From Dictyostelium discoideum (taxonomy: Eukaryota), in assembly GCA_000004695.1 (NCBI GenBank), contig CH709159.1, positions 1-3,759 of the forward strand: a stretch of DNA of 3,759 bases. The letters are read 5' to 3'. The position numbers were made by a program, and so were the translations under genes. The notes beneath the pieces are model-generated. The model ran no database searches, was not told the origin of the DNA, and was given only the letters and a program-made list of their open reading frames with translations. This document shows positions 1-3,759 of this stretch, piece after piece (positions within the stretch are counted from its first letter, which is position 1; each line of letters begins with the position of its first letter).

Positions 1-225
1 TACAGTTTTTACACAATGTTGGTGAAATTGTTTTGGTTTTAATGCTAATGCTTAAACATCATATTTGAATTTTTAACAATTAAAGCATCACCACTATTTA
101 CATATAGTACTTTGGCTGCTTTTTCGAGGAATTTAGTCAAATTTTCCTCTGCATCTAACTATTATTCATTGCCAGATTCAATGGCTAAATTTCTTAAGAG
201 TTTTATCAAATCTATTAATTCTTCG

Positions 226-388
226 ATCATTCTTTTTTTTTTGAAATTTTTTTTTTTATTTTGTTTTTTCAATTTTTTTTTTTATTTTTTTTTGTTTTTT
301 TTTTAACAAATGTAATTTTTTTTTATTTTTTTCAATTTTTTTTTTTTTTAATTTTTATTTAATTTTTTTTGTTTTTTTTTAATTTTTT
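226..388. repeat. Oligo(dT)/oligo(dA) low-complexity block (runs of 9-14 T separated by 1-4 nt)
   Basis: Directly visible homopolymer T runs. Typical AT-rich intergenic or 3'-flank DNA. The six-frame 'ORF' 112..306 is just a poly-Phe translation of this block. Confidence 0.85.
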
Positions 389-414
389 GTGTTGATTTGT
401 GTTGATTTGTGCTT
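389..414. repeat. 10-bp tandem repeat (GTGTTGATTT) x about 2.5
   Basis: gtgttgatttgtgttgatttgtgc seen directly. Confidence 0.8.
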
Positions 415-444
415 TTTTTGTGTTTTTTGATTTCGCCACTTGTT

Positions 445-450
445 TTTATT
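445..450 (-). terminator. AATAAA polyadenylation signal for the minus-strand gene ending at 499
   Basis: Minus-strand AATAAA (plus-strand tttatt) lies about 50 nt downstream of the TAG stop at 499-501. The A-rich tract follows on the minus strand. Confidence 0.4.
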
Positions 451-498
451 TTCTAATTTCCCCATAACCCCTTCTATTAATTGCAACCAAATCAAGTT

Positions 499-1023
499 CT
501 AATTTTTTGTGTCCTTGTTAACTTTGTTTTTGCAACTTTTTTTTGAAGGTATCACATTAACGATTGTTCCTATTGATGGTGATTTGGAAGGTGATTTGGA
601 AGGTGATTTGGATGGTGATTTGAGAGGTGATTTGGATTGTGATTTGAGAGGTGATTTGGATGGTTTGGAATGTGATTTTAAAGGAGGTTTATTAACAATT
701 GGTATCTTATGATGACGGCCTCTGAGACGTTTTACAGTTTTTAAAAATGGGAGTATTTCTTCTTGTTCCATTTCATTATTGAGTTTGTGTTGAAATTGAT
801 TATCGTTAATGATAGGTGGAATATTTGATGGATTGTTAAGGGCATCTTCCAATACCCTAAATGGATCATTTTGTGTTACCAATTGATGCAAGTTGAAATT
901 GGATAAATCCTTACCAAGATTTTTAATAAATTGAACCAGAAATTCAATAACTTTCCCATCATTATTTAAATAAAGGCCAGAAGTAAAAGAATCAATATCT
1001 TTTGGTATGTTTGGCCAAAAATA
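499..1023 (-). CDS. Hypothetical low-complexity protein, C-terminal part, with a KSPSKSP/SPLK tandem-repeat tail. Open frame of 174 codons plus a TAG stop at 499-501. The 5' limit is set by an in-frame TGA, not a start codon.
   Basis: The six-frame track gives 499..891; its first codon is TTG, so this is not a real start. The same frame stays open upstream to 1023 with strongly A/T-ending codon usage (cca, gat, tct, tta, gtt, caa). It translates as ...FWPNIPKDIDSFTSGLYLNNDGKVIEFLVQFIKNLGKDLSNFNLHQLVTQNDPFRVLEDALNN...KSPSKSPSKSPS...KDTKN*. No ATG lies in frame before residue 'NNEMEQEE', so the true start must be upstream via a frame change (see next feature). Confidence 0.55.
   Translation of the reverse strand, partial: YFWPNIPKDIDSFTSGLYLNNDGKVIEFLVQFIKNLGKDLSNFNLHQLVTQNDPFRVLEDALNNPSNIPPIINDNQFQHKLNNEMEQEEILPFLKTVKRLRGRHHKIPIVNKPPLKSHSKPSKSPLKSQSKSPLKSPSKSPSKSPSKSPSIGTIVNVIPSKKSCKNKVNKDTKN
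578..682 (-). repeat. 12-bp coding tandem repeat (GGTGATTTGGAA-like, about 8.5 units) encoding (K-S-P-S/L)n on the minus strand
   Basis: Units seen directly: ggtgatttggaa x2, ggtgatttggat, ggtgatttgaga, ggtgatttggat, tgtgatttgaga, ggtgatttggat, plus degenerate units. The plus-strand 'ORF' 509..712 (GDLEGDLEG...) is the antisense artefact of this repeat. Confidence 0.9.
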
Positions 1024-1185
1024 TCAACTGTTGATTGTTTATAAAGAACCAACTTACCTCCTACAACCAGAGTATAAACCTTTTTTTTGAAGGCTATTGA
1101 TTCCATCTTCCAAAAATTCAAGTTTATAAAGTTGTTTAGTGTCTTCCTGTATTACCTTATGAATTTTACACAAAATAAATATTTT
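1024..1185 (-). CDS. Probable upstream coding continuation of the same gene. The well-coded frame switches at homopolymer runs. Frame a reads ...QEDTKQLYKLEFLEDGINSLQKK. After the T8 run at 1081-1088, frame b reads (MESIAFKKK)VYTLVVGGKLVLYKQSTVDIFGQTYQK. After the T4 run at 1000-1003, it joins the 499..1023 frame.
   Basis: Codon-usage quality moves from frame a to frame b to the downstream frame exactly at A-runs on the minus strand. Frame b has an ATG at 1106..1104 (MESIAFKKKVYTLVVGG...) and is open to a TAA at 966-968. A GTAAGT donor-like hexamer (minus strand, 1057..1052) sits where frame a hits its stop. The only downstream AG gives a 30-nt intron that enters the 3' frame at a TGA, so splicing does not explain the switch. 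The gene structure is unresolved. Confidence 0.3.
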
Positions 1186-1260
1186 CTATTAGAATTAAAT
1201 ATAAAATTTGTTAATTATTACTGTTTCTTATATTATTATTAATCTTTATGTTTTAATTAC
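1186..1260 (-). other. Candidate intron or inter-ORF spacer (about 90% A+T). On the minus strand it begins GTAATT just after a TAA and ends AATAG.
   Basis: Composition and GT...AG ends are seen directly. However, all three frames of the upstream ORF hit stops before the GTAATT, so its use as an intron is unproven. Confidence 0.2.
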
Positions 1261-1478
1261 TTATATTATTTTTTTAATTTCTAGAAAAAGTACAGTATCA
1301 CCAACTTTAAATCCCTTTGGTGGTTTTGAATTCCATTGATTTTGGTAACTTGTGAGATTTTCAAGAATAGCTGTTCTTTCTTTTTTGAAACATCTGAAAC
1401 ACCAATTGATTGAGAGTTTTGTTCTGATTGAACATTAATAAACAAAGGTACAATACCAACAGCTTGAGATGATGCCAT
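1261..1478 (-). CDS. Small ORF or first exon. It reads MASSQAVGIVPLFINVQSEQNSQSIGVSDVSKK. After the T6 run at 1381-1386 the better-coded frame shifts to ERTAILENLTSYQNQWNSKPPKGFKVGDTVLFLEIKKII*. Alternative start ATG at 1517. The track frame ends at 1281.
   Basis: Track ORF 1281..1517 (-). The AAAATGG context at 1478 is better than that at 1517. Codon usage (ggt, gtt, tca, gat) is excellent up to the A6 run, then better in the -1 frame, which ends at TAA 1261-1263. It lies about 60-100 bp downstream of the outward-facing TATAAATA of the left repeat arm. Confidence 0.4.
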
Positions 1479-1567
1479 TTTAATTGTTCTTGTTTTCGTA
1501 TTATTGTAATCATACAAAGCTTGTTTTAATCCCAGTGAGACAATCCGGCCATATTAGTCACATTCAC

Positions 1568-1575
1568 TATTTATA
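1568..1575 (-). promoter_or_regulatory. TATAAATA box at the outer end of the left arm, facing outward on the minus strand toward the ATGs at 1517 and 1478
   Basis: Plus-strand tatttata is TATAAATA on the minus strand. It lies 175 bp from the HSE. Its partner is at 3048-3055. Confidence 0.35.
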
Positions 1576-1620
1576 CATTTTTATTTTCTTAAAAATTTCC
1601 CAAAACTAAAAAAATAAGTG

Positions 1621-1746
1621 TTTTCGACCCTTCACAATTTTCGTGCATTGTGTGGGTTCGGAATTTTTATGTTTTTTGACCTTGCGCATTTATCGCGTCA
1701 TTGTGCCGGTTCGAAATTTTTACTTTTCTTTCGAAAATTTTTTATT
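1621..1746. repeat. Degenerate tandem sub-repeats of about 52 bp inside the left arm (two units plus a partial third), each ending in GGTTCG(A/G)AATTTTTA or TTCGAAAATTTTTTA
   Basis: Unit 1 (1621-1669) and unit 2 (1672-1723) align: ttttYgaccYtt...cattgtgNNggttcgRaattttta. A third copy of the 3' half is at 1731-1745. Mirrored in the right arm at about 2877-3000. Confidence 0.7.
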
Positions 1747-1747
1747 C

Positions 1748-1768
1748 TTCGAATGTTCTAGAACATTC
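1748..1768. promoter_or_regulatory. Heat-shock element in the left arm: TTCGAAtgTTCtaGAAcaTTC
   Basis: Four contiguous perfect nGAAn/nTTCn pentamers with 2-nt spacers, plus an abutting TTC. CTAGAACATTCTAA matches the Pelham consensus CTnGAAnnTTCnAG at 13 of 14 positions. Confidence 0.65.
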
Positions 1769-1823
1769 TAAAAAAAATTATCTTAGATATTTGGGAAATT
1801 CAAATAAATAAATGTTATTAATA

Positions 1824-1843
1824 ATATATATATATATATATAT
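1824..1843. repeat. (AT)10 microsatellite, with a further (AT)5 at 1853-1862
   Basis: Seen directly. It could act as a TATA-like element for inward transcription from the HSE. Confidence 0.9.
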
Positions 1844-2624
1844 GATAATATTATATATATATGATAATATAAATTGCCCCGTTTCAATCGTCCAATGCAA
1901 AAATGTATGTACACCATAACTCACTTCCATCTCACCGTTTACATCACAATTTTCGCCCTGGAAATAGTTTGTAAGACAGAAGAAGGCTCAACATTTCTGG
2001 ATGTCTATCGCGTTGACTAATAACCAGCTCCCAACCACTATTTCCTTTAGCACCTTTCATATCTACATCAACATTATACTTAATCAATAACTTTACTAGG
2101 CCTGTGTTATGATTCTCAATAGCCCAGCACTTCGGTTTAAATGGGAAGTAAGTATAGGTATGACAAATGAAAAAAATACGTGCTCATGCGAATATATAGG
2201 ATGGGTAGGTCGGCATCTATGACTCGATAGAATTTTTACATTACATGATAATAAGGCATCAATAATGACTGGTTGAGTTGTATATTTGGAAATAGATACG
2301 TTCTAATATAACATTAAACGATTCATTTATTTCATTTATTTCGGTCGTTTTTAAATTATATAAATTACAATAGCACAAAATACATCTCCAAAAAGAGTGT
2401 ACACCGAAAACTTCACACATTCCAGTTAAAACTATATTGTATGCGTAATCATTCACCATAAATTGTTTAGAAGGTATTTATTCACCATCTACATCTAAAA
2501 ATCCACATTTTATACCAATCATTTAATTTATCAAAAATTGACTTTCATCTTTTCCTAAAATTCTTGATAAGTTTCCTTCCCGTGTAATACAAAAATTGGT
2601 TTGTTCACAGCAAAGAAAAATGCA

Positions 2625-2768
2625 CCTTTAAAGCAAATTTAAAGCAAAGTTGATTTAAATTGGATTTAAATTGAATTTAAAGCCGCGTTTAAAAAATTCA
2701 TTTTTAAGGTAATTTTTAAGGTAATTTTTAAGATATTTAAAAATGCCTTTAAAATTTGCTTTAAAATA
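2625..2768. repeat. Cluster of short TTTAAA-cored micro-tandem repeats: (TTTAAAGCAAA)x2, (GATTTAAATTG)x2-3, (TTTTTAAGGTAA)x2.5, (CTTTAAAAT)x2
   Basis: Seen directly, immediately inside the right arm. Confidence 0.75.
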
Positions 2769-2781
2769 AATTTATATTATC

Positions 2782-2800
2782 ATATATATATATATATATA
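2782..2800. repeat. (AT)9.5 microsatellite
   Basis: Seen directly. Confidence 0.9.
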
Positions 2801-2854
2801 TTATGAATAACATTTATTTATTTGAATTTCCCAAATATTTAAGATAATTTTTTA

Positions 2855-2875
2855 GAATGTTCTAGAATATTCGAA
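2855..2875. promoter_or_regulatory. Heat-shock element in the right arm: GAAtgTTCtaGAAtaTTCGAA
   Basis: Mirror image of the left-arm HSE. Four perfect alternating pentamers. Confidence 0.65.
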
Positions 2876-3047
2876 GAATAAAAAATTTTCGAAAGAAAAG
2901 TAAAAATTTCGAACCGGCACAATGACGCGATCATTGCGCAAGGTCGAAAAACTGAAAAATTCCGAACCGACACTATGCACAAAGTTGTGAAGGGTCGAAA
3001 ACTCTTATTTTTTTGAGTTTTGCGAAATTTTTAAGAAAATAAAAACG

Positions 3048-3055
3048 TATAAATA
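3048..3055 (+). promoter_or_regulatory. TATAAATA box at the outer end of the right arm, facing outward toward the ATG at 3223
   Basis: Seen directly. It lies 175 bp downstream of the HSE and about 170 bp upstream of the ATG. A second TATA-like run (TATATATAT, 3107-3115) and an oligo-dT-rich stretch lie closer to the gene. Confidence 0.35.
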
Positions 3056-3122
3056 GTGGCACTAAAAACTAAAACAATTTGATTTATTTTATTTGGGAAT
3101 TCCTCCTATATATATTTAAGAT

Positions 3123-3134
3123 ACACACACACAC
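3123..3134. repeat. (AC)6 microsatellite in the 5' flank of the right gene
   Basis: Seen directly. Confidence 0.9.
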
Positions 3135-3222
3135 AAATTTTATACAAATAATTATTTCTCTTTATTAATTTTTAATATTATTATTTTTCTCATATTATAA
3201 TTTTAGATATCAACAATAAAAT

Positions 3223-3759
3223 ATGTCTACCACTGTTAATAATAATGATGCCTCTAGTAGTAGTACCTCTGCCTCTAATAGCGCTGAATCCTTTGATTTA
3301 AGAATGAAATCAATGGAGGATCAAATCAACAACCTTTCCTTAGCCTTTACAAGATTCATGAAAGAACCTATGTTCTCATCTAATACCAATTCACGTAGCC
3401 AACCTTCTCATGATAACTCTGACACCGAGAATGAACAAAGTGAAGATGAATCAAGTAACAATGTCGATGTTCCAACCGATTATCAATTATCCGATACTTT
3501 ACTTGGTCAGTACAAACATATGGTAAACAATCAAGGTTTACTCGTCGAAGAAGAATGTATCCTCAAGAAAGATGAGATATCCGAATTGAATAAAGTATTC
3601 AACTTTCCATCTAACTTCCAAGTGAACGTCGCTCCATTCGGTACACCTGAAGGTATTACTGTATCATCCAACGTCAAGAACAATGATACTGACTTGTTGA
3701 TTGTCGAAAAGCGAATCAATGATAGCTTAAAACCTTTGCTTCTCATGTCAAGTATGTTA
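3223..3759 (+). CDS. Hypothetical protein, 5' portion. 179 codons open to the window edge with no stop. N-terminus is MSTTVNNNDASSSSTSASNSAESFDLRMKSMEDQINNLSLAFTRFMKEPMF.... It has a Ser/Thr/Asn-rich N-terminus and an acidic stretch, then ...LLGQYKHMVNNQGLLVEEECILKKDEISELNKVFNFPSNFQVNVAPFGTPEGITVSSNVKNNDTDLLIVEKRINDSLKPLLLMSSML...
   Basis: ATG lies in an AATAAAATATG context. I re-translated every codon from 3223 to 3759 with no stop. It is absent from the ORF track only because it has no stop inside the window. There is frequent use of C-ending codons (acc, tcc, aac, atc, ttc, gtc, gac). I could not assign a family. Confidence 0.7.
   Translation, partial: MSTTVNNNDASSSSTSASNSAESFDLRMKSMEDQINNLSLAFTRFMKEPMFSSNTNSRSQPSHDNSDTENEQSEDESSNNVDVPTDYQLSDTLLGQYKHMVNNQGLLVEEECILKKDEISELNKVFNFPSNFQVNVAPFGTPEGITVSSNVKNNDTDLLIVEKRINDSLKPLLLMSSML

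Follow-up and report, generated by a model that had tools for sequence, protein, structure and literature searches.

A decayed copy of the transposon Tdd-4, with broken reading frames, beside DIRS-1 sequence in Dictyostelium discoideum

The original description of the transposon Tdd-4 is reportedly that of Wells in 1999, which is said to give six introns for the element and to propose a DNA-binding role for its SPXX repeats. As published, Tdd-4 is 3,839 bp long, is flanked by 5-bp target site duplications (TSDs), and belongs to the Ginger2/TDD group (PMC2836005). The centromeres of D. discoideum consist of ~49% DIRS elements, together with DDT, Skipper, and a few percent of Tdd elements, and in these DIRS-rich regions the Tdd elements have been fragmented by later insertions (Glöckner and Heidel 2009, PMC2665215). 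One D. discoideum gene model, DDB_G0282919, is listed as 'DDB_G0282919_TE, Tdd-4' in an expression table (PMC12405889).

The window analysed here is a stretch of 3,759 nucleotides of D. discoideum contig CH709159.1 (assembly GCA_000004695.1), AT-rich and dictyostelid-like in composition. A first-pass annotation placed one or two host genes on its minus strand, and attributed three jumps of the reading frame to errors in homopolymer runs or to a young pseudogene, perhaps linked to an adjacent insertion. The supposed host gene or genes are the 3' part of the Tdd-4 transposase gene, cut off at ~1530-1536, the point at which DIRS-1-related sequence starts. The suggestion of a pseudogene came close to the truth, except that the pseudogene is a transposon's and not that of a host gene. 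The minus strand of window 1-1530 is a decayed copy of a known transposon, already known in kind and bringing no new biology, and it can be called with high confidence a dead, 5'-truncated copy of Tdd-4, a cut-and-paste DNA transposon whose transposase resembles a retroviral integrase.

A word-indexed protein search with the conceptual translation returned two matches, P0001 (ACTFIT_009771) and P0002 (DDB_G0282919, AX4, partial). That so few were returned is probably due to the low-complexity KSPS tail, which would have crowded the list of candidates. An exhaustive profile-free search of 1.84 billion proteins with P0002 as the query returned a 19-member D. discoideum cluster of 'integrase catalytic domain' proteins, as well as distant relatives in D. 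cf. discoideum, D. dimigraforme, and D. firmibasis. The locus of P0002 was taken from P0003, a longer model in the same cluster. Four loci, L003-L006, all encode another cluster member, P0014 (715 aa), in identical form, and they do so within an element of 3831 nt whose copies are 99.6% identical to one another. The reference copies L003-L005 have terminal inverted repeats (TIRs) of ~320 nt with the termini TGTTG...CAACA (TG..CA), and the target duplications of the reference copies are the 5-bp sequences ATGAC and CATAT. Element size and the 5-bp TSD at the loci encoding P0014 agree with published Tdd-4 (PMC2836005). In P0014, Pfam places Integrase_H2C2 at residues 76-119 (32.1 bits against a cut-off of 25.5), and rve and rve_3 at 183-306, both below threshold. 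In the intact copies, each exon of the complete 715-aa protein is read in a single frame, without a shift at any of the disputed runs, and L003-L006 served as references for the calling of lesions. As a reference, L002 was dropped because of its own 5-nt insertion at the intron donor, deletions of 9 and 48 nt, and two in-frame stops.

By blastn and alignment, window 1530..1 on the minus strand is collinear with L003 2659..4461, and the copy covers ~1483-3285 of the 3831 element coordinates. A base-by-base comparison with L003 over window 1535..440 gave 97.7% identity (1070 of 1095 aligned nt). The copy spans residues 296-715 of the 715-aa integrase-like transposase; 3' of the coding part that ends with residue 715 lie an AT-rich region and then a conserved downstream ORF, and the remaining ~546 nt at the 3' end of the element, TIR included, would fall past window position 1. 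With the six frameshifting indels undone, the copy yields a translation of 337 aa, identical at 324 of 337 positions to P0014 residues 296-715 and carrying the same C-terminal peptide as intact Tdd-4. What remains is the extreme end of the integrase core, followed by the C-terminal region together with the SPXX repeats; residues 1-295, with the zinc-binding H2C2 domain and the DDE core, are missing from the break beside DIRS-1 sequence onward. In place of an integrase-like transposase with H2C2 and DDE (rve) domains, the window copy is a fragment of a member rather than a functional member, and a Pfam scan of the conceptual protein as first proposed, and of the right-hand ORF, gave no matches. 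The exon/intron junction of P0014 (..EIKKNN/KILILCK.., with the slash at the junction) is common to the window copy and intact Tdd-4. At its other end, MASSQ was put forward as a protein start, but the ATG at 1478 encodes an internal Met of the 715-aa protein, found in the family within ..TKTRTIKMTPSQAVG.., and its frame stays open upstream to ~1529 (LKQALYDYNNTKTRTIK; LKQALYDYNN...), where homology ends.

Lesions of the window copy were called by alignment to intact Tdd-4 copies, and their sharing was judged against a sister fragment, L001, which lies in an independent assembly (GCA_054883475.1, CM142509.1) and is annotated as ACTFIT_009771. The features are collected in Table 1.

Table 1. 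Positions in the window of the Tdd-4 fragment, its lesions, and the flanking DIRS-1 sequences
Feature	Position	Strand	Remarks
5'-truncated Tdd-4 copy	1..1530	-	matches L003 2659-4461 (blastn and alignment to L003-L008)
Internal Met codon ATG	1476..1478	-	..TKTRTIK-M-TPSQAVG.. within transposase
-1 nt, G of AAAGAAG	1382/1383 (run 1381..1386)	-	frameshift 1; created A6 run; window copy only, absent from L001
-3 nt TAT, one Ile lost	1369/1370	-	in frame; common to L001
A8 to A7	1269..1275	-	-1 frameshift in last exon codons; A8 in all other copies; not in L001
Tdd-4 intron	1186..1264	-	79 nt here, 76 nt (GTAAGT...AATAG) in intact copies
Intron donor G to A (GTAAGT to ATAAGT)	1264	-	splice donor lost; common to L001
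+3 nt inside intron	1239-1241	-	no effect; common to L001
A8 run, proposed site of second jump	1081..1088	-	no lesion; A8 in 8/8 other copies; intact ORFs CAA AAA AAA GGT (QKKG)
-2 nt TT (GGTTTTGTA to GGTTGTA)	1066/1067 (1064..1067)	-	true frameshift 2; common to L001
-3 nt AAC	1055/1056	-	in frame; common to L001
-7 nt (TTTTTAGAACATCGCC to TTTTTGGCC)	1017/1018 (1015..1018)	-	true frameshift 3; window copy only, not in L001
T4/A4 run, proposed site of third jump	1000..1003	-	no lesion; identical in all copies; family frame PNIPKDIDSF already through run
-135 nt (45 codons) against intact copies	739/740 (739..740)	-	in frame; common to L001
SPXX (KSPS/KSPL) tandem repeats, transposase C-terminus	574..678	-	12-nt period
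A7 to A8	537..544	-	+1 frameshift; A7 in seven copies (L002-L008); stretch deleted in L001
A5 to A6	503..508	-	second +1 frameshift; A5 in seven copies (L002-L008); stretch deleted in L001
Family stop codon TAA	446-448	-	
Tdd-4 3' TIR end ...CCCTACAACA	would fall left of window position 1		
Junction between Tdd-4 fragment and DIRS-1 repeat, ~30 nt	1531-1564		
DIRS-1 terminal repeat copy	1565..1869	.	inverted relative to 2770-3060
DIRS-1 terminal repeat (2770-~3060), then ORF1 start (ATG 3224)	2770..3759	+	

In total the window copy carries six frameshifts (-1, -1, -2, -7, +1, and +1), and the three frame jumps noticed at the outset are the first, third, and fourth of these. At the site of the first, the intact copies read GVSDVSKEERTAIIL. 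The A7 at 1269-1275 puts a TAA at 1261-1263 in frame when the genomic sequence is read through. The SPXX array has suffered in-frame deletions of 60, 24, and 24 nt, leaving it 108 nt shorter than in L003, and this region is deleted in L001. In the absence of selection, the copy would have gathered such frameshifts, together with the dead donor and the in-frame deletions, and it probably has no function of its own. The list of three sites drawn up in the first-pass annotation had missed four further disabling changes as well as the real 79-nt intron at 1186-1264, and the C-terminus that it proposed (..SKKSCKNKVNKDTKN, then stop) is an artefact of the +1 at 537-544, the family C-terminus being ..SKKVAKTKLTRTQKLELDLVAINRRGYGEIRK followed by the stop.

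The three moves of frame within 966-1478 of the minus strand are themselves real, with a protein-like reading that switches between two frames, and the plus-strand runs T6 (1381-1386), T8 (1081-1088), and T4 (1000-1003) are present as described. The reading passes from the frame of ATG 1478 (MASSQAVGIVPLF...) to a second frame (..ERTAILENLTSYQNQWNSKPPKGFKVGDTVLFLE), resumes in this second frame past an AT-rich stretch (KIHKVIQEDTKQLYKLEFLEDGINSLQKK..), moves to the first frame (..VVGGKLVLYKQSTVDIF..), and finally returns to the second (..DIDSFTSGLYLNNDGK.. up to the KSPS tail). The claim that each jump falls at a homopolymer run holds for the first site only, where the lesion at 1382/1383 lies in or beside the A6 run, and even there the event was likely the loss of a G between A runs rather than a change in run length. 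The second jump had been assigned to the A8 run, which is A8 in all eight other copies, and stems from the loss of TT at 1066/1067, ~15-20 nt downstream; the third had been assigned to the T4 run, unchanged in all copies, and stems from the 7-nt deletion at 1017/1018, ~14 nt upstream. There are 17 runs of >=4 bases in the 513 nt of region 966-1478, or ~1 per 30 nt, and the intervals free for each switch, bounded by the stops of the two frames, measure 151, 95, and 55 nt and contain 6, 2, and 3 runs. With runs so frequent, chance alone would be expected to place one close to each jump.

Restoring single bases at the three runs (+1, -1, and +1) does produce continuous ORFs mechanically, but two of the repaired peptides differ from the family sequence, which reads LQKKGLYSGFVGGNKLVLYKQ in place of the proposed LQK-VYTLVVGGKL, and DIFRTSPNI[QP]KDIDSF in place of GQTYQK-DIDSF. 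Relatives from D. cf. discoideum, D. dimigraforme, and the cluster of P0005 are 40-66% identical at the protein level, and at this distance the motif Q-x-x-G-x-x-x-x-[FY]-[VI]-G-x-x-K-L is conserved. The motif SPNIP-x-D-x-DS-[FY]-TS is kept in one relative, P0006 (D. cf. discoideum), and its TS-x-[LF]-Y core is present in all relatives compared. Because these motifs are conserved, they establish the ancestral frame across the A8 run and, taken together with the intact copies, in the stretch upstream of the A4 run, and neither of the two repaired peptides can be ancestral.

An intact gene whose frame is displaced only by homopolymer errors of sequencing or assembly is very improbable. It is true that four of the six frameshifting differences (1381-1386, 1269-1275, 537-544, and 503-508) are single bases in or beside A runs, an error type typical of long-read assemblies, and in principle the four single-base differences (1382/1383, 1269-1275, 537-544, and 503-508) could be read or assembly errors as well as the mutations for which they are taken here. 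However, L001, which comes from an independent assembly, has both the -2 at 1066/1067 and the mutated donor at 1264, the loss of 7 nt at 1017/1018 is no run-length error, and the A8 and A4 runs blamed for the second and third jumps are unchanged across all copies. Furthermore, were every indel repaired, residues 1-295, with H2C2 and most of the integrase core, would still be absent. Since the whole catalytic part is missing, the choice between error and mutation at the four single-base sites leaves the identification of a decayed Tdd-4 copy unchanged. Homopolymer error as the main cause of the jumps must be given up, with the second lesion present in another assembly, the third a loss of 7 nt, and two of the three sites misplaced.

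Shared lesions tie the window copy to L001, which lies 5.7-17 kb from the end of a 6.43-Mb chromosome. Both carry the -2 TT, -3 AAC, -3 TAT, and -135 deletions, the G to A change of the donor, and the 3-nt insertion in the intron, and both have the same 5' break with a GGG insertion and with DIRS-1 repeat sequence adjoining the break. In contrast, three changes of the window copy are absent from L001, namely the loss of G, the shortening of A8 to A7, and the -7. L001 has lesions of its own: a -9 at the first site, a -4 by which the intron acceptor is destroyed, the loss of the entire SPXX region (window 491-675), and a deletion of ~120 nt across the DIRS-1 repeat junction. The lesions in common show that the two copies derive from one fragment that was already truncated and frameshifted, and their presence in an independent assembly means that they cannot be errors of the window assembly.

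L001 also bears on the idea that very short introns join the frames of a functional host gene, or of a transposase fragment that has been domesticated, as in the ACTFIT_009771 model for P0001. In that model of 250 aa, a 47-nt GTAAGT...TTTTTAG 'intron' bridges the same -2 frameshift and the real intron region is skipped by means of GTACTC...ACAG, and transcripts of DDB_G0282919_TE have been detected and are raised in a DNMA knockout (PMC12405889). The 'intron' of P0001 is, however, coding sequence in the intact copies (GGT AAC AAG TTG GTT ... GTT GAT ATT TTT AGA) and in distant relatives, and its TTTTTAG acceptor has been removed from the window copy by the 7-nt deletion, making the same model impossible there. 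Further frame-breaking indels set the window copy apart from L001, a difference that speaks against constraint; the fragment gave no Pfam domain, and a host function of this kind is very hard to credit. As for splicing in the window itself, the one short intron of the decayed Tdd-4 copy corresponds by homology to a GT-AG intron of 76 nt in the intact copies, but has its donor mutated to AT. It had been stated that splicing cannot explain the last two jumps and that no GT..AG is available; the frames are indeed broken by indels that splicing does not reconcile, but a GTAAGT...CAG does lie at 1058-1029, in sequence that is coding in intact copies and too short for an intron. For the second jump, a 30-nt intron running from the GTAAGT at 1058 up to the CAG at 1029 was weighed and rejected, this sequence being coding in intact copies and distant relatives and far shorter than the real intron of 76 nt.

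Runs such as A6 and A8 are classic slippery sequences, and the transposases of IS3 and IS1 are made by -1 frameshifting, points that would favor expression of the transposase by programmed ribosomal frameshifting or transcriptional slippage at the A runs. Against this, the intact Tdd-4 copies use one frame per exon with no shift at the A runs, and the frame changes map to deletions that these copies lack. To our knowledge, there is no precedent for three shifts of mixed direction within 400 nt. Rather than a conserved change of frame at a slippery site, four loci encode an identical 715-aa protein unshifted, and the likelihood of programmed frameshifting is vanishingly small. It had been judged unlikely from the outset, a judgment borne out by the intact copies, which show no frame change at the positions concerned.

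One further reading starts from what the window copy and L001 have in common. The two may belong to a distinct, internally deleted Tdd-4 sub-variant that was active for a time and was later copied, along with the DIRS-1 junction, by segmental duplication between centromeric arrays, a scenario that is unlikely as it stands. Such a sub-variant could have been one without the 45 codons between LPFL and TVKRLRGR and with a shorter SPXX array. Among the 23 coding substitutions against an intact copy, 10 are synonymous and 13 non-synonymous. This 10:13 ratio represents an excess of synonymous changes over pure neutral decay, such that some of the divergence may date from the time of an active sub-variant, and it gives a hint of past constraint on the lineage of the window copy and L001. 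If true, the scenario would provide a dated marker of how centromere repeats turn over in D. discoideum.

The sequences that flank the decayed Tdd-4 copy are those of DIRS-1. Between window 2770-3759 and L001 177-1087 the identity is 96-97%; the L001 stretch is followed directly by genes with matches to RVT_1, RT_RNaseH, and Phage_integrase (tyrosine recombinase), DIRS-1 being complete there, and the window flank has the inverted terminal repeats and ORF1 by which DIRS-1 is recognized. Insertion of DIRS-1 probably caused the 5' truncation of Tdd-4. It is possible that the rest of the 5' part of Tdd-4 sits beyond the DIRS-1 sequences, outside the window, in which case the element would be interrupted rather than truncated. 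The DIRS-1 context, together with the position of L001 near a chromosome end, suggests that the window represents a DIRS-1-rich region of the centromere-forming kind.

For annotation, two consequences follow from a genome so AT-rich that a run occurs every ~30 nt: a run close to a frame jump is no proof of cause, and the site of a lesion can be located only by comparison with intact copies. Furthermore, the NCBI gene models ACTFIT_009771, ACTFIT_007025, and DDB_G0282919 are transposon pseudogenes, presented as 'hypothetical proteins' by way of invented mini-introns.

Compared with described systems, the locus has its nearest counterpart in Tdd-4 (Wells 1999, Bao et al. 2010), with which the window copy has in common 97.7% nucleotide identity, the exon/intron junction, and the SPXX region. 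Unlike intact Tdd-4, the window copy is a fragment, missing the 5' TIR as well as the H2C2 domain and DDE core; it has six frameshifts and an internal deletion of 135 nt, its splice donor is dead, and its SPXX array is shortened. More distant are P0005, from a second D. discoideum cluster, and P0006, P0007, P0009, P0011, and P0012, which have the architecture of the window family and its motifs in the disputed stretches; at 40-66% protein identity, the P0005 cluster and the dictyostelid relatives were used to fix the ancestral frame only. The P0005 cluster, which is unnamed in any source, is possibly Tdd-5. In its setting, the locus resembles the fragmented transposons of the centromeres (Glöckner and Heidel 2009, PMC2665215), where, as in the window, a Tdd fragment lies beside pieces of DIRS-1.

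The window copy and L001, the sister Tdd-4 fragment in GCA_054883475.1 (CM142509.1), are duplicates of one composite Tdd-4/DIRS-1 segment that was rearranged afterwards. Alignment of L001 4860-4944 with window 1531-1739 shows that ~120 nt (window ~1537-1655) are missing from L001, a loss that runs across the place where Tdd-4 meets the DIRS-1 repeat and has an AC microhomology at the joint, and the DIRS-1 material of L001 is arranged differently from that of the window. Furthermore, ~76 nt of DIRS-1 ORF1 (window 3246-3321) are missing from the DIRS-1 copy at L001 177-1087 and are found in that at L001 9793-10382; this difference is an indel polymorphism among DIRS-1 copies.

Two inverted DIRS-1 repeats are separated by ~900 nt (window 1870-2770), for which DIRS-1 internal sequence was ruled out. 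Within this segment, window 2354-2533 is 97% identical to L001 1-180, the flank of a DIRS-1 in L001, and the minus strand holds an interrupted reading with AIENHNTGLVKLLIKYNVDVDMKGAKGNSGWELVISQRDRHPE, whose similarity to ankyrin repeats is weak and sub-threshold (Ank_2, E=0.003). A 171-nt TTTAAAG-rich repeat recurs several times in L002, a defective Tdd-4 locus, at 98-99% identity (L002 3283-3453, 5782-5952, and 11239-11409), and a large insertion within the Tdd-4 intron of L007, a further Tdd-4 copy, ends in this repeat too. The repeat is probably the terminus of a different D. discoideum transposon, which we would guess to be a DDT-type element.

Coordinates of repeat, reading-frame and gene-model features
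Feature	Location	Strand	Remark
Short ORF	window 45-140	minus	contains EENLTKFLEKAAKVLYVNSGDALIVKNSNMMF; beyond the AT-rich stretch 3' of transposase
Very AT-rich stretch	window 200-440		3' of transposase stop (446-448)
TTTAAAG-rich repeat, 171 nt	window 2606-2776		contains GATTTAAATTGAATTTAAAGCCGCG .. TTTTTAAGGTAATTTTTAAGG
Gene model P0001	L001 5001-6240		defective copy
Gene model P0003	L002 5001-7538		defective copy
Gene model P0002	AX4 DDB_G0282919		defective copy

Where public gene models sit on a defective Tdd-4 copy, as these three do, they carry the name 'hypothetical protein', and invented short introns let such models bypass frameshifts and stops. In P0001, for instance, GLYSGCRR is spliced to TSPNIPKD, and P0003 leaves out the SPXX region, the tandem-repeat region at the transposase C-terminus, which in L002 carries two in-frame stops.

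The short downstream ORF is kept in every Tdd-4 copy, and in intact loci is annotated as a gene of its own, of 110-114 aa (L003 4231-4629, for example); relative to other copies, that of the window has a 1-nt deletion and a differing end. Wells 1999 is said to describe Tdd-4 with an unusual sixth intron, and the short ORF may be the last Tdd-4 exon, lying behind that intron.
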